This document shows positions 1,405 to 61,712 of a stretch of DNA of 64,000 nucleotides, one piece after another. Each line of letters starts with the position of its first letter. The first letter of the stretch is position 1. This DNA is from a virus (Duplodnaviria > Caudoviricetes): IMG/VR virus record IMGVR_UViG_3300027759_000001. The stretch is one strand, 5' to 3'. The notes under the pieces were generated by a model, which was given only the letters and a program-made list of their open reading frames with translations, had not been told where the DNA came from and searched no databases. The position numbers and the translations under genes are program-made.

Positions 1405-2160
1405 ATGATCTATACTCCAGAATTAATCAAGTCAACCGCACCATCAATCTTCGCAACATCTCCATCGTCAAAAATGACAAACAAGTATGAATTTGTCCCT
1501 ACAGACAAGATCATGGAGTTCTTTGATAGAGAAGGGTGGGAAATTTCATCTGTTAAACAAAATGGTAGTGGTATCCACGCCTTACACGAAGTAAAGTTCC
1601 GTAATGGACAACTTCCATCTGTTGGTGATACTTTGGTTGAAGCAATCATCAAAAACTCTCACAATGGTATGTCGGCATTCTCAATGAGTGCAGGTCTTCA
1701 CAGATTGGTGTGTAGTAACGGATTAACGGTTCCTACGTCAGTAGCAGACCAATTCCGAATCCGACACAAAGATTTCCAACTTGACGATGTTAAAATGTTA
1801 ACGGAAAGTTTCGCAAAGAAATTACCAATGATTCAACACTCTGTTGGAAGAATGATGGAACGTCAACTTACTATGGATGAAAAAGTTGAGTTCGTTCAAA
1901 AAGCATCTAAACTTAGATGGGCAACAGGTTCAGTTCCTTCAACACTTGATTTAGTGGACTTGTTAACACCTAACCGTAACGAAGATGAAGGAGATGACCT
2001 TTGGAAAGTCTTTAACGTAGTACAAGAGAAATTTGTACGAGGTGGGGTTGAGTACAGATCACAAAGTGGTCGTAAGACAGGGTTAAGAGGTTTGAAAAAT
2101 ATTATGGCGGTAAACGCAATAAATACAAAACTTTGGGAGACTGCTGAGTCAATGATCTAA
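1405..2160 (+). CDS. DUF932-family phage/plasmid protein
   Basis: NSHNG...GLHRLVCSNGL...RIRH motifs. Confidence 0.85.
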   Translation: MIYTPELIKSTAPSIFATSPSSKMTNKYEFVPTDKIMEFFDREGWEISSVKQNGSGIHALHEVKFRNGQLPSVGDTLVEAIIKNSHNGMSAFSMSAGLHRLVCSNGLTVPTSVADQFRIRHKDFQLDDVKMLTESFAKKLPMIQHSVGRMMERQLTMDEKVEFVQKASKLRWATGSVPSTLDLVDLLTPNRNEDEGDDLWKVFNVVQEKFVRGGVEYRSQSGRKTGLRGLKNIMAVNAINTKLWETAESMI

Positions 2161-2847: not shown

Positions 2848-3127
2848 GTTAGCAATCATATTTTCAATGAAATCATGTGGTCATTGTAAAACACTTAAGG
2901 AAATGTTGGATAAAGAAGACATACCTTATATTGATAGAGATATTGACGAACATAGCGATGAATACGATATGTTTGTTTCAATTACTAAGAATGAATATGT
3001 TCCGGCATTTATGTTAATTGAATCACCGGGGCAAGAAAATTCTAAGACTGAACTTTACGCACCTGAAAGAGATTATAATGAACTTGATGAAGGTGTAAAA
3101 ATCATTAAAGAGTTTTACGAAAGATAA
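2840..3127 (+). CDS. glutaredoxin/NrdH-like redoxin
   Basis: CGHC and YVP motifs, adjacent to thioredoxin. Confidence 0.8.
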   Translation: MDKLAIIFSMKSCGHCKTLKEMLDKEDIPYIDRDIDEHSDEYDMFVSITKNEYVPAFMLIESPGQENSKTELYAPERDYNELDEGVKIIKEFYER

Positions 3128-3131
3128 TAAA

Positions 3132-3167
3132 AAACCCCATTTCTTAATAAGAGTGGGGTTTCTTTTT
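3132..3167. terminator. bidirectional terminator between convergent genes
   Basis: AAACCCCA...TGGGGTTT with A/T tracts; near-identical hairpin at 24786-24815. Confidence 0.8.
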
Positions 3168-3855
3168 AGAATATAATTACATCCTCTAATCTGTCCTGAA
3201 CCAAGTATGGTTTTTCTCCCTCAGGATCCAATATATCTTGGGTAAGGTCATAAGACTCCATTCTATTGGAGAAGTCCTCTAAATCAAAGTCAAATACGTC
3301 TAAAATTAGTGATCTGATTGTTTGTGGATTATACATTGACGTAGTCACAACTTTAATATCAACCTCATCATCTACTTTAGGTAAGAAATGAATATACATA
3401 CTTTCTGATCCGATTGTTGATGAAATTTGGTTAAGTATATAATGTGAGTAGTAAACCATAGATCTACCTGTACGTAAACTATAACCATATGGAAACTCAG
3501 AACTAATTGAAATTTCATCAAATGATTTATTCTCCTCAACAAATACATTTTTATTTGTATCAACCCAACCTGTTTCAATTGGGAATATCTCAACTCCGTA
3601 TTTGATTATATTAATGATATTAAAATGTTCTAAACCTAATGATTTAAGAATATCTTTATAGGTCTCATTGAATTCATTTTTTAATTCGTCAATGTTAAGT
3701 TCTGTTTCGCTTGTGGTCTGACCATTAACAACCATGAATACATCACAATCTGTGATTTGTATAATTGATCTTTCTTTTGGGTCAATTTTAGAAACGATGA
3801 AATCGGCAAATAAATTTACTATGCCTCGTCTTGAATTTTTATTGATTAATCTCAT
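3166..3855 (-). CDS. degenerate S-adenosylmethionine synthetase (MetK)-like protein
   Basis: Segments resemble MetK N- and C-domains (see findings); catalytic motifs absent. Confidence 0.55.
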   Translation of the reverse strand: [229 protein letters not shown]

Positions 3856-3906
3856 ATCTTTTTTTGTAATTAATATGAGTTTTAAATGAATATATAAATA
3901 GTTTAG

Positions 3907-5001
3907 TTAAATATAGTCTCCGAATATATCATTTATATCTTTGGTAACTAAACCGTAATCTGGGTAATCAGGTATTCTAAAGTCTAACCAATCATATTCA
4001 CCATCATCCATTAGTCGTTTCATCATAGTTGTATAACTACCCTCGTAATCTAATTTATCTTCACTATATTCACTACCCACACGACTGGAAAGAAATTTTT
4101 CCACATTACCTTGTAAGTCACGTATTTTAACATATTGTAACCATTTAGTTGTTTCACCTATTTTGGTTTGTTCTTCAAGTACTCTACCAACAAAGTGTAT
4201 ATCCAACTCTGACCAAATTAAACCATATATTTCACTTTGGTATGCCCCATTATATGCATTATTATGAATATTACTTAGTTCACTTTCTAATTCAGATAAA
4301 TCATCATCTAAAAGTTGTTTCATCGCTTCTTCATTCTTAATCAATTCATCTAAATTTTCTTCTTTGATTATGAAATAACCTTCAGTTCCTTGTTCTTCAG
4401 ATAAACCTTCAAAAAACTCTGAGTCATATTTTTCTAATGAAAACTCAACATTACCAATTTCTCTGAATATATAATTTCTTAATTTTATAACATTTTCAAC
4501 ATCTAATTCTTCAATTACATCTTCATAAACATTATTGGTTGAATCATAAAAATCTTCATAGTAATCTTCACCTAATACGTGTTCTGCAACATCTTTTGCC
4601 GTAGTATCGCGACCACGATCATCAAATAGTTCGGCAAGTTCTGTACGGTCTCTTAAGAATAGGTAATAACCATCTGATCTTCTTTCAACATCCCTTAGAA
4701 TGTTTCCGGATAACCATTCTAACCAAACTTCAGGATCCTGTTGTATTTTATGTAAGAGAAAATCATTCTCAAGAACTTCTGGTATAGATTTATATTCAAA
4801 GTTATCTAAAATTTTTGTTTTAACTAAAAAATCAAATGAGGGTACGTTATTATAAGGTATGTTGGATAAGTCTAACTCATTAATTAAACCTGTTCTAAGT
4901 ATAAAACTTAAAAATACCTCAATCCTATTATTGAATATTTTGGATATACCATTCCAATTACCTTCATTAAATTCTTCAATTAGTTCTTCAATATCATTCA
5001 T
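3907..5001 (-). CDS. acidic hypothetical protein
   Basis: 364-aa ORF, D/E-rich, TATTTAT upstream (5007-5013). Confidence 0.8.
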   Translation of the reverse strand: MNDIEELIEEFNEGNWNGISKIFNNRIEVFLSFILRTGLINELDLSNIPYNNVPSFDFLVKTKILDNFEYKSIPEVLENDFLLHKIQQDPEVWLEWLSGNILRDVERRSDGYYLFLRDRTELAELFDDRGRDTTAKDVAEHVLGEDYYEDFYDSTNNVYEDVIEELDVENVIKLRNYIFREIGNVEFSLEKYDSEFFEGLSEEQGTEGYFIIKEENLDELIKNEEAMKQLLDDDLSELESELSNIHNNAYNGAYQSEIYGLIWSELDIHFVGRVLEEQTKIGETTKWLQYVKIRDLQGNVEKFLSSRVGSEYSEDKLDYEGSYTTMMKRLMDDGEYDWLDFRIPDYPDYGLVTKDINDIFGDYI

Positions 5002-5067
5002 AACTTATAAATATAAAAAAAGGTGGAAAATACTTCCCACCTCAACTTTTTAACCAATAACCACAGA

Positions 5068-5208
5068 TTACTTTTTGTTGTAATACTTCTCAACAATTTT
5101 CTTTACCGACTCTTGAACCGAAGATTGGCTCGCCGCTGGTTGTTGTGGAGCTTGTTGAGGTGCCTGAACAGGTTGTTGATTTGCTTTATTTTTACATCCG
5201 CATCCCAT
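5068..5208 (-). CDS. 46-aa MGCGCK... Gln/Pro-rich small protein (below ORF-track cutoff)
   Basis: Hand translation MGCGCKNKANQQPVQAPQQAPQQPAASQSSVQESVKKIVEKYYNKK. Confidence 0.75.
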   Translation of the reverse strand: MGCGCKNKANQQPVQAPQQAPQQPAASQSSVQESVKKIVEKYYNKK

Positions 5209-5277
5209 AATATTTGTTTTAATAGGTTTATTTAATTATAAATATCAGAGAAGTATCATATTTTGTAAACCATTAAA

Positions 5278-7658: not shown

Positions 7659-7841
7659 ATGGGTTTTAACAAAAGATTTTTAAAGAAAGAGAACATCCTT
7701 AATCACCTTACAGATATTATGAATTATTTAGATGCCGACGCAGTGTTGTGTACGGATGAATTTTCACGCAATGTCTACAGGATGTTTAATGAGGGAAAAA
7801 ATGAGGAAGAAATAATAAAATACATAAATAAAAATAAATGA
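7659..7841 (+). CDS. hypothetical protein
   Basis: ORF with ATGA overlap to next gene. Confidence 0.75.
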   Translation: MGFNKRFLKKENILNHLTDIMNYLDADAVLCTDEFSRNVYRMFNEGKNEEEIIKYINKNK

Positions 7842-8956
7842 AAGTTAAGTTAGAATATGTGTGGATTGACGGATATACACCGGAGCCAAACCTTAGAAGT
7901 AAGATTAAAATTGTGGACTATGAGCAAATTAAAAATTGTTTAGTTCTAAATAATTTCCCTGAATGGAACTTTGATGGGTCATCAACATTACAAGCGGAAG
8001 GTAATAGTTCTGATTGTATTTTAATACCTGTTAGACATTATTTTTGTGATAATACAAACACAATTTACGTGTTGTGTGAAGTAATGAATTCTGATGGTAC
8101 ACCACACGAAACTAATACAAGATCAAAACTAATTGGAGATCAAGAAGATTTGTGGTTTGGGTTTGAACAAGAATATTTTATCTACGATAGAAATAACAAA
8201 TGTATTTTAGGACACAATGAAAACAACTTGGAACCACAAGGTAAATATTATTGTGGTGTTGGTGAATATGTTGCAGGAAGAGATTTTGTTGAGGAACATA
8301 TGGATATGTGTTTAAAATACGGAATTGATATTACAGGGATCAACGCTGAGGTTGCATTAGGTCAATGGGAATACCAAGTATTTTCAAAAGGTAAATTAAA
8401 GGCAGGTGATGATTTGTGGATGACCAGATACTTTTTATATAAAATCTCTGAAAAATATAATTATGGGATTGATCTACATCCAAAACCAATTCAAAAAGGG
8501 GAATGGAACGGGTCAGGACTTCATACAAATTTCTCCACAGATAAAATGAGAAATGATGGTAACGAAAAATATTTTATATCATTGTTTAATGCGTTTGAGG
8601 TAAGACATGAAGCCCATATTAAATCTTACGGGTCAGATAACAATCTTCGTTTAACTGGTAAATTTGAAACACAATCAATTGATAAATTTAGTTGGGGGGT
8701 TTCAGATCGTGGGGCATCAATTAGAGTTCCAAGAGATACTGCAAAAAATTGGAAAGGTTATGTTGAGGATAGAAGACCTGGATCAAATGCTGACCCATAC
8801 AAAATTATTAAAGAAATTGACATATCTTTAAATACTACCGATCAAATCTACGATGTTAAAATAATGATGAGTAAGGATTTTGATATGGAAGGTCTTAATG
8901 AAAAATACGGAACAATTTCAAATGATGAATTATTAAAAGAATATAGAGAAGAATAA
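7838..8956 (+). CDS. glnII: glutamine synthetase type II
   Basis: EYVWIDG, WNFDGSST, GFEQEY, NAEVALGQWEYQ, WNGSGLHTNFS, RLTGKFET, RGASIRVP, EDRRPGSNADPY. Confidence 0.95.
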   Translation: MKVKLEYVWIDGYTPEPNLRSKIKIVDYEQIKNCLVLNNFPEWNFDGSSTLQAEGNSSDCILIPVRHYFCDNTNTIYVLCEVMNSDGTPHETNTRSKLIGDQEDLWFGFEQEYFIYDRNNKCILGHNENNLEPQGKYYCGVGEYVAGRDFVEEHMDMCLKYGIDITGINAEVALGQWEYQVFSKGKLKAGDDLWMTRYFLYKISEKYNYGIDLHPKPIQKGEWNGSGLHTNFSTDKMRNDGNEKYFISLFNAFEVRHEAHIKSYGSDNNLRLTGKFETQSIDKFSWGVSDRGASIRVPRDTAKNWKGYVEDRRPGSNADPYKIIKEIDISLNTTDQIYDVKIMMSKDFDMEGLNEKYGTISNDELLKEYREE

Positions 8957-9222
8957 TGGAAAAAGAATGTGTATGTGGAGCTAACGTATTTTGTGAGTGC
9001 CCTCCAATAAAAGTAGAACAAGTTAATCATCCTAACCATTACGGAGGAGAGGATAATCCTTATGAAGCAATAAAAGTTATTGATGCTTGGGATTTAGGAT
9101 TTAGTTTAGGAAATACTGTAAAGTATATTTCAAGAGCTGGAAAAAAAGATAAAGAGTTACAGGACCTTAAGAAAGCATTATGGTACTTGCAACATCATAT
9201 AGAAACATTAGAGAAAAAATGA
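8956..9222 (+). CDS. DUF3310 family (T7 gp1.7-like nucleotide kinase)
   Basis: VNHPNHY...GFSLGNTVKYISRAGKK...DLKKALWYL. Confidence 0.9.
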   Translation: MEKECVCGANVFCECPPIKVEQVNHPNHYGGEDNPYEAIKVIDAWDLGFSLGNTVKYISRAGKKDKELQDLKKALWYLQHHIETLEKK

Positions 9223-10677: not shown

Positions 10678-11526
10678 ATGATAGAAACAGGAAAAATTAT
10701 AAGTGGAGATTGTATTGAAGTAATGAAAACATTACCTGAAGGATCTGTGGACTTAATTTGTACATCGCCTCCATATGGAGTCGGTATTGCTTATGATGTA
10801 CACGACGACGATGTTGAATTTGATGAGTATTTAGTATTTGCTAAGAACTGGTTAACTGAAGCGTATAACGTATTAAAAGATGATGGTCGTATTGCACTTA
10901 ACATTCCTTATGAGATTAACAGACAAAAAAAAGGTGGGAGAATTTTCTTTGTTTCTGAGATGTATCAGTTAATGAAACAAATTGGATTTGGATTCTTTGG
11001 TATCGTTGATCTTGAAGAACAATCACCACATAGATCTAAGACAACGGCATGGGGTTCTTGGATGAGTCCATCAAGTCCGTATATTTATAATCCAAAGGAG
11101 TGTGTAATATTAGCATACAAAAAACACCACATTAAAAAGGTTAAAGGAGAACCTCAGTGGAAAGGGACACCTACTGACATTGAACAGGAAGATGGGTCAT
11201 TAAAGAAAAAAATTGTATATGAGGAGAAGGATAAGAAAGAGTTTATGGAACTTGTGTTTGGTCAGTGGAATTACTTTGCAGATACTAAATCACTCACCAA
11301 GGCGACTTTCTCAATGGACATACCGACCAAGGCAATTAAGATACTATCCTACAAGAACGATGTAATATTAGATCCATTTGCTGGTTCAGGTACAACATTA
11401 GTAGCGGCTCAGATATTAGAACGTAGATGGTTAGGTATTGAGTTAAGTGAAAATTACAAACAAATTGCCGAAACAAGAATTAATTATTTCAAAGCTTTAG
11501 AACAAATAAAAGAACTCCCACTATAA
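10678..11526 (+). CDS. beta-class N4-cytosine/N6-adenine DNA methyltransferase (orphan)
   Basis: TSPPY precedes LDPFAGSGTT; no cognate REase nearby. Confidence 0.92.
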   Translation: MIETGKIISGDCIEVMKTLPEGSVDLICTSPPYGVGIAYDVHDDDVEFDEYLVFAKNWLTEAYNVLKDDGRIALNIPYEINRQKKGGRIFFVSEMYQLMKQIGFGFFGIVDLEEQSPHRSKTTAWGSWMSPSSPYIYNPKECVILAYKKHHIKKVKGEPQWKGTPTDIEQEDGSLKKKIVYEEKDKKEFMELVFGQWNYFADTKSLTKATFSMDIPTKAIKILSYKNDVILDPFAGSGTTLVAAQILERRWLGIELSENYKQIAETRINYFKALEQIKELPL

Positions 11527-12501: not shown

Positions 12502-12586
12502 AATATATATTTTTAATTGGTTTAAGCTAATTTACATAAAAACATTGGATTTGCAAACTTTTTTTTGTTGAAAACTATTTATAACT

Positions 12587-40735: not shown

Positions 40736-40747
40736 TATTTATAAATT

Positions 40748-48163: not shown

Positions 48164-48205
48164 ATACTATTCTGTTAAAACAATTTTTAAATATATTTAT
48201 ACTAT

Positions 48206-58937: not shown

Positions 58938-59747
58938 TTAAAGTATCTTTGACCCTTTTTTTAGGTTATCAGTTGCCCATAAAGGTTGTAAGTTGGTATA
59001 ATGATTAAGTTTAATAATTTCCTCCTTTATCTTTGTTGATGATAATGGAATTATGTGATCAATATGCCAACCAATAGGACCATAATTATCCCAAGACATT
59101 CCGTCAACAAATTTAGTTTCTATATAATCACGTAATTCCTGAGGGGTACAACCGATCATTTCATAGGTTGATTTTGATATCCTACTCATAATACCAATTA
59201 ATTTTAAATACGACCTAAGTCTATTTCTTAAGTTTGTTGTTAGTCGAAAAGACTCATCAACCTCCCTTCTTTTTTTAACGTACTTTGTCTGTCGTTTACT
59301 TATGTGTTCCGAATTATCTTTAGTGTATTGTTTTTTTTGATTTCCTATAGATTCTGAATTATTTTTGTAATATTCACGAGTAACTTTAACCCTACATTCT
59401 TTACATGCAGTGTTTAATCCATCTGATGTAATTCTAAGTTTACCAAAACACGACTTTTCTAAAATTTTTAAACAACTATAACAGTATTTCATACCTAATC
59501 TTTTAGACTCCTCAATAACGTCATTTTCTTTAATGACATCCTCCAAACTCATATTTCTTTTTTTAGAACTTTTTTTAAGTTGACGTATTTTAACGGATTC
59601 TTCAGTCTCGTTTTCTTTTCTATATTTTTTTATACATGATTTACAATCAATATTTAACCCATCTTTTATTACAATGTTTTTATAGAAATTTTCTTTTGGT
59701 TGTAATAACCCACATTTGCGACAAACTTTATTTTCCATAATAAACAA
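58938..59747 (-). CDS. HNH endonuclease with N-terminal CxxC repeats (homing-type)
   Basis: CRKC..CKSC, CYSC..CKEC; WHIDHIIPL..HYTNLQPLWATDNLKK. Confidence 0.9.
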   Translation of the reverse strand: MFIMENKVCRKCGLLQPKENFYKNIVIKDGLNIDCKSCIKKYRKENETEESVKIRQLKKSSKKRNMSLEDVIKENDVIEESKRLGMKYCYSCLKILEKSCFGKLRITSDGLNTACKECRVKVTREYYKNNSESIGNQKKQYTKDNSEHISKRQTKYVKKRREVDESFRLTTNLRNRLRSYLKLIGIMSRISKSTYEMIGCTPQELRDYIETKFVDGMSWDNYGPIGWHIDHIIPLSSTKIKEEIIKLNHYTNLQPLWATDNLKKGSKIL

Positions 59748-61663: not shown

Positions 61664-61712
61664 ATAACAAAGGTACAAATTATTTTTGACATAACCTAAT
61701 ATTTATAGTAGT

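Follow-up and report, generated by a model that had tools for sequence, protein, structure and literature searches.

The window, a 64,000-nt stretch of phage DNA, is AT-rich (~30% GC) and has the majority of its genes on the plus strand. On the minus strand at 3166..3855 (stop codon counted in) lies the coding sequence of P0001, a protein of 229 amino acids recognized as MetK-derived from its fold and hereafter called MetK-like. Two further minus-strand genes lie upstream of it: one (3907..5001) encoding a very acidic protein of 364 residues, and o46 (5068..5208), a 46-aa ORF that starts with MGCGCK, is Gln/Pro-rich in its middle and ends in a basic helical tail. In most related loci o46 shares the strand of the MetK-like gene and sits immediately upstream of it (39-70% identity); roughly a dozen of the remotest loci gave no match to it, and neither did Pfam. 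The 364-aa protein is confined to loci with the short (229-232 aa) form of the MetK-like protein and absent from all long-form loci, a co-occurrence that may be lineage-bound. On the plus strand, a SAM-dependent N6/N4 DNA methyltransferase (o282; 10678..11526; PF01555, E 3e-34) is syntenic wherever the flank reaches.

All 63 IMG/VR loci retrieved with two family members have one gene order: methyltransferase, DUF3310, (GlnA-like), o265 and an acidic 511-aa protein, and on the opposite strand o46, (the acidic 364-aa protein) and the MetK-like gene, which stands tail to tail with Grx, Trx and, farther on, an LRR protein. A search anchored on the methyltransferase recovered a family member in all 35 loci with sufficient upstream flank and found it absent from none. 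The MetK-like gene is core, not accessory, in this clade of T4-like freshwater jumbo phages. Contigs of the relatives reach 318 kb, and a T4 gp23-type capsid gene is present in each of five records that are complete or nearly so (257-318 kb). The hosts of the clade are probably Bacteroidota.

Rates of divergence differ along the locus. In one group of related loci (L096-L159), the methyltransferase (10678-11526, plus strand) and DUF3310 (8956-9222, plus strand) are 78-94% identical to the window copies, and o265, Grx, the LRR protein and the MetK-like gene are a mere 25-48% identical, which suggests unusually strong constraint on, or recent exchange of, the first two. The MetK-like gene was considered as a hypervariable cassette (~25-30% identity versus 84-91% for the methyltransferase); this was rejected because the other neighbours have diverged equally, so that the methyltransferase and DUF3310 are the unusually conserved ones. 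A glutamine-synthetase-like gene (372 aa; 7838-8956, plus strand; PF00120 and PF03951) is variably present or absent at the same position in related loci. Among phages with 95-100% identity elsewhere (L009-L027), the stretch separating the MetK-like gene from Grx (3127 to 3166 in the window) ranges from ~40 nt to ~1.3 kb, and in some of these loci Trx is only 71% identical with neighbours at 98-100%, a pattern suggesting that the convergent terminator is a hot spot of indels and replacement. Elsewhere in the window, a 269-aa ORF (58938-59747, minus strand) has a weak, sub-cut-off match to GmrSD_C, the C-terminal domain of a type IV restriction endonuclease (E 1.3e-4).

Promoter-like box and transcription unit

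A promoter-like box, TATTTATA, lies 38 nt before the ATG of the MetK-like gene (3893..3900, minus strand), as seen in the sequence and in related loci. Its (A/T)TATTTA core at -45 to -49, the terminator and a leader of ~40 nt recur in loci whose MetK-like proteins are as little as 34% identical. Downstream, a hairpin with T runs on both sides (3132..3161) has the form of a bidirectional terminator for the minus-strand MetK-like gene and the convergent, plus-strand Grx gene. The upstream genes have signals of their own: o46 is preceded by its own TATTTATA box (5237-5244, minus strand) and followed by a terminator (5020-5043, minus strand), and the gene for the 364-aa acidic protein has the box 5 nt upstream of its ATG.

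The box is a feature of the window at large. TATTTAT occurs 68 times, 29 of them in sense and within 80 nt upstream of starts, a space amounting to 6.6% of the sequence; the corresponding count for the control motif TATAAAT is 9/63. Its distance to the ATG peaks at 4-7 nt. Boxes ending 4-7 nt before the start are found in at least 14 genes (for example, at 12576-12583, 40736-40743, 48194-48201 and 61700-61707), and such spacing implies leaderless or near-leaderless mRNAs. Many boxed genes open with K-[IL]-[IL]-[TI]-E-type leaders resembling T4 capsid-targeting sequences; the capsid-cargo leader ([IL]-x-E) is absent from the MetK-like protein. Nucleotide-metabolism genes in the window are without the TATTTAT box. 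The major capsid gene, where the box was also sought, mostly sits directly after another gene. Upstream of a DUF932 gene (1405-2160, plus strand), the element TAtcTTTG at ~1340-1404 matches the Bacteroidota -7 consensus TAnnTTTG, in keeping with a Bacteroidota host and with a host-type early class separate from the TATTTAT class. Sigma-70-type promoter sites are not enriched around the MetK-like gene. Judged by these sequence elements, the MetK-like gene forms a transcription unit of its own in a phage-specific TATTTA box class, not the host-type early class, and we infer that it is expressed after the early phase driven by host promoters.

Homology to MetK and the missing middle third

MetK is among the most conserved enzymes in biology. 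The canonical enzyme, MetK/MAT (EC 2.5.1.6), with the domains PF00438, PF02772 and PF02773 (for example E. coli MetK; PDB 8bb1_A, 7lnn and 1xra), makes SAM from ATP and methionine as a tight dimer with shared active sites. As a single sequence, the 229-aa protein had no Pfam match even at E 10 and only noise in PHROGs and among PDB sequences. The family A1 profile found nothing meaningful among PDB sequences, and the phage GenBank collection records compared, as DNA and as protein, held no match for the 229-aa protein or for a 55% relative. A comparison with the ESM Atlas yielded no usable match, and one with BFVD returned a single uncharacterised family member.

Four independent lines of evidence identify the protein as a MetK look-alike: Pfam matches of individual members, AlphaFold2 modelling with Foldseek, VIA-align superposition and domain-specific profiles. 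Five of 50 family members singly match S-AdoMet_synt_C (best E 4e-5), and one of the 50 matches S-AdoMet_synt_N (E 0.039), all below Pfam thresholds. The AlphaFold2 model, made from a 50-sequence alignment, has a pLDDT of 93.4 and a pTM of 0.89, and a Foldseek search of the PDB with it returned MetK/MAT chains exclusively, with at least 150 matches at E <= 0.001 (top E ~2e-7, prob 1.00). VIA-align superposed 221 of the 229 residues on chain residues 9-381 of E. coli MetK, with a Z of 17.5 and an rmsd of 3.4 A. By both structural methods, the MetK alpha/beta fold and native domain arrangement are present for two of the three domains. In hhalign comparisons with E. coli metK (NC_000913.3) and five phage MetKs, the similarity is domain-specific: for the N half, E is 7e-4 with the MetK N domain but 0.22 with M and 0.64 with C; for the C half, it is 2.6e-3 with the C domain but 0.39 and 0.24 with the other two. 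The preliminary description, made from the sequence alone, had called the protein a two-domain MetK look-alike and proposed profile and Foldseek searches as the check; both led to MetK, and all four of the segment pairings with E. coli MetK that it had proposed recur in the same register in profile-profile alignment with real MetKs. Thus DPKERSII...NIDEL pairs with MetK 35-68, a C-half segment pairs with LTLLVREFFDL, and KPYLVQD pairs with FPWEKTD.

On this alignment, residues 1-85 (3601..3855, minus strand) are the domain-specific counterpart of the N-terminal Pfam domain PF00438 and form, in the AlphaFold2 model, beta1, a helix (9-22) and strands 30-36, 40-47 and 79-85. Residues 116-229 (3169..3510, minus strand) are the counterpart of the C-terminal domain PF02773 (hhalign E 2.6e-3 to 6e-3, with the Pfam matches in five of 50 members noted above). 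Between them, residues 86-115 (3511..3600, minus strand) make a short connector of ~31 residues that replaces ~150 residues of MetK. The protein is thus like MetK in fold, in the arrangement of N and C domains and in a consistent profile register, and individual positions are shared: G45 with G55, F121 with F263 or H258-G259 depending on register, R131 with R273, the FDF helix with FFDL, and KPW with FPW. It is unlike MetK in its 9-15% identity, its sub-threshold Pfam scores, the shortened middle and the loss of GHPDK, E43, E56, K266 and D272.

The deleted segment, MetK ~100-250, comprises the gating loop, the GAGDQG motif and the whole S-AdoMet_synt_M domain. In crystallographers' nomenclature it is most of the 'N-terminal' structural domain, and 'middle third of the sequence' is therefore a safer name for it. 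The three Pfam domains PF00438, PF02772 and PF02773 are not found above threshold in the 229-aa protein, and it has no similarity to the M domain. That the central domain and the GHPDK, GAGDQG and GGGAFSGKD motifs are missing had been noticed from the sequence, and the hhalign register agrees. GHPDK, in which His15 is the acid catalyst and Asp17 a Mg ligand, followed by Lys18, is aligned with N7-S8-R9-R10-G11; H15, D17 and K18 are all replaced, and S8 alone is semi-conserved in the family. E43 has become Q33 and E56 has become Q46, both at positions that vary within the family. GAGDQG and the Q99 gating loop fall inside the deleted segment. The triphosphate loop GGGAFSGKD (K266, K270, D272) corresponds to SSEFPYGYS...TGR; the register of residues 116-128 is ambiguous, the profile alignment and a gap-free reading differing, so that K266 is either G124 or deleted, and D272 is G130. 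Among those phosphate-loop positions R273 is the sole residue kept, as R131. With the middle domain and every catalytic or substrate-binding residue examined lost, and read against established MetK enzymology, the 229-aa protein is predicted to lack SAM-synthetase activity: it cannot be expected to make SAM. Being homologous to an enzyme family, stripped of its catalytic residues and under purifying selection, it qualifies as a pseudoenzyme.

Phages also carry full-length MetKs (139 records in the phage collection, among them Faecalibacterium phage FP_Brigit, Erysipelothrix phage phi1605 and Streptococcus phages). These resemble the MetK-like family in being phage-borne members of the MetK superfamily whose genomes also have DNA methyltransferases. 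They share, however, 45-63% identity with E. coli MetK along 95-99% of the E. coli protein and retain every motif, whereas the MetK-like family is a separate, dead lineage; an intact MetK was found in none of its five complete relatives. In a full-text literature search, neither a MetK-derived pseudoenzyme nor a two-domain MetK turned up.

Family, conservation and selection

The family comprises 648 matches in an index of 5.8 billion proteins, with no informative source annotation, and 201 representatives at 50% identity in an exhaustive HMMER search. Members in the HMMER set are ~205 to 277 aa long, and none has the length of MetK; one HMMER match taken for a long member, P0223 (1423 aa), was rejected as an unrelated Thr/Ser/Gly repeat protein. 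No fused or three-domain relatives were found, the search for longer homologues having spanned 486-2000 aa, and a close-relative search of 185,579 bacterial and archaeal genomes found no close relatives.

Conservation was counted over 103 members with pairwise identity below 60%. Conserved positions are N14, I32, F40, G45, T47, F62, D82 (N in the window copy) and Y86, then the loop S119-x-F121-P122-x-G124-x-S126 followed by R/K131 and Y136, and farther on S182, L185, D186, F188, D189 and F190. The best-conserved motif of the family in the 103-sequence alignment is S-x-F-P-x-G-x-S...R/K (residues 119-131; 3463..3501, minus strand), with S119 in 99/103 sequences, F121 in 98/103, P122 in 98/103, G124 in 99/103, S126 in 90/103 and R/K131 in 100/103. 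Its position is that of the MetK triphosphate-binding loop, minus K266 and D272. The dN/dS ratio of the MetK-like gene is 0.09-0.29 against five orthologues (0.09-0.16 for the four closest) and resembles those of Grx and Trx. The gene is functional, given dN/dS of ~0.1, about 200 clusters at 50% identity and presence in 35 of 35 loci.

Relatives of ~245-277 aa, and a class of 283-295 aa from more distant phages, have 15-80 extra residues exactly at the deletion site. The model of a 273-aa relative (pLDDT 96) folds its insert as a helix, a beta-hairpin and one more strand, and the aligner placed 263 of its 273 residues on MetK (Z 17.5); as modelled, the insert is consistent with a stub of the lost domain. 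The inserts have no sequence similarity to the MetK middle domain (E 0.44 for the 283-295 aa class; no Pfam M match). On its own, the 283-295 aa class matches the MetK N domain at E 8e-4 and the C domain at E 1e-3, and it retains just S...G.S of the conserved loop. In a midpoint-rooted family tree, with weak deep nodes and an unreliable root, the length classes are interspersed. The segment at the deletion site is evolutionarily labile.

Candidate roles and dependence on SAM

Our main reading, to which we give a probability of roughly one half, is that the MetK-derived pseudoenzyme is a binding module organized around the remodelled loop S-x-F-P-x-G-x-S...R/K. It is a descendant of MetK that kept the N- and C-terminal alpha/beta domains in their native arrangement, and it most likely acts through binding, not catalysis. 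The former active-site face, which in MetK is the subunit pairing face, would bear the best-conserved motif, namely the remodelled former phosphate loop, and the conserved polar residues N14, T47, D82 and Y86 are predicted from the MetK alignment to accompany the loop on that face. The protein may form a homo-oligomer, or a complex, that uses the face as a new site for a ligand or a partner protein, and it would serve the phage's own biology rather than deplete host SAM.

The genomes of the relatives bear on this last point. A Dam-type methyltransferase is encoded in four of the five complete relatives, 5-7 kb from the MetK-like gene in three, and no MetK M or C domain was found in the five 257-318 kb relatives. 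Conserved SAM-dependent DNA methyltransferases without an own MetK mean that these phages depend on host-made SAM, and from this dependence we infer a service to phage biology, not host SAM starvation. The preliminary description had offered 'a dominant-negative MetK mimic or a repurposed scaffold'. The scaffold half stands, given the MetK fold without catalytic residues, the purifying selection and the clade-wide presence; the SAM-lowering half sits badly with the context (methyltransferases kept, a core gene, no host-type early promoter), and a dominant-negative, SAM-starving role is thus not supported by the predicted gene content and promoter class.

The T3 SAM lyase, another phage protein with a proposed action on the SAM supply of the host, is the functional analogy drawn in the preliminary description. 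It is the product of gene 0.3 (PF23780; PDB 8bb1, 7ock) and both cleaves SAM and inhibits MetK by binding. T3 is not known to carry a SAM-requiring DNA methyltransferase. The lyase differs from the MetK-like protein in being an active enzyme and in its unrelated beta-barrel fold. PF23780 had no match in the five complete relatives, in a search run without a positive control, and none in the 229-aa protein, whose fold is that of MetK and not a beta-barrel. Binding and inhibition of MetK by the T3 SAMase give a precedent for targeting MetK, and its contacts on MetK are T130, P212 and W215 (10.1101/2023.02.27.530186). These three residues sit in the domain that the MetK-like family lacks, which counts against an analogy based on SAM starvation.

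In a rival reading, the protein would be a dominant-negative subunit mimic that docks its flat beta-sheet face onto host MetK. The resulting heterodimers would have both shared active sites incomplete, SAM would drop, and type I/III R-M and BREX would be disabled. We consider this unlikely. The MetK fold, including the dimer-face sheet, is retained with catalysis lost, the T3 SAMase does inhibit MetK by binding (10.1101/2023.02.27.530186), and the best-conserved loop of the family appears to lie at the former interface and active site. Yet one third of that interface is gone, and the MetK-invariant face residues E43, E56, K266 and D272 are variable or different in a family that is 9-15% identical to MetK. 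The clade, moreover, retains SAM-dependent DNA methyltransferases without its own MetK, the gene is core and not an accessory anti-defence gene, and the host-type early promoter and the capsid-cargo leader are both absent.

The conserved polar residues of the proposed binding face could equally make a new catalytic site, and the protein might still be an enzyme with new chemistry at a site formed from N14, T47, D82, Y86, S119, S126, R/K131, D186 and D189. Some ten polar positions recur in 75-97% of the 103 diverse sequences, under strong purifying selection. Against this, none of the metal- or phosphate-binding acidic or basic residues of MetK is retained, no other enzyme family was matched, and the candidate site is not invariant, since the 283-295 aa subfamily keeps S...G.S alone. 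A new enzyme is therefore improbable. Somewhat harder still to credit is a virion structural or assembly protein, made together with the products of other TATTTA-box genes. The box is common to ~25 genes of the window, many with T4-type cargo leaders, and the MetK-like gene is core; but the protein has no [IL]-x-E leader, its box lies at -38 with a leader, unlike the leaderless spacing of 4-7 nt, its neighbours are metabolic (Trx, Grx, GlnA-like, methyltransferase), and no structural-protein family was matched.

A very improbable reading is that the rebuilt MetK pocket acts as a non-catalytic sponge for a SAM-related or adenine-nucleotide molecule such as SAM-AMP, countering host immune signalling. 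The pocket of MetK holds adenosine, methionine and triphosphate together, and type III CRISPR of Bacteroidota reportedly makes SAM-AMP as a second messenger from SAM and ATP (Chi et al. in Nature, 2023); most of the residues that contact ligands in MetK are gone, however, and the gene behaves as core, not accessory. Finally, that the gene is a functionless, decaying relic of a once-active phage metK, as the loss of one domain and all catalytic motifs might suggest, is already contradicted by the selection and conservation data: dN/dS is ~0.1, hundreds of divergent copies keep an intact frame, conservation extends to motifs, promoter box and terminator, and the structure models are very confident.

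To our knowledge, the MetK fold has been known essentially from active SAM synthetases alone. The large dead-MetK family described here (~200 clusters at 50% identity), under purifying selection and core in a clade of freshwater jumbo phages, shows that the MetK scaffold can lose a whole domain and be reused. The 229-residue protein offers a defined, foldable target for finding out how a phage uses such a look-alike: it may interfere with host MetK, be tied to SAM-dependent methylation of the phage's own DNA, or have a role outside SAM biology altogether.
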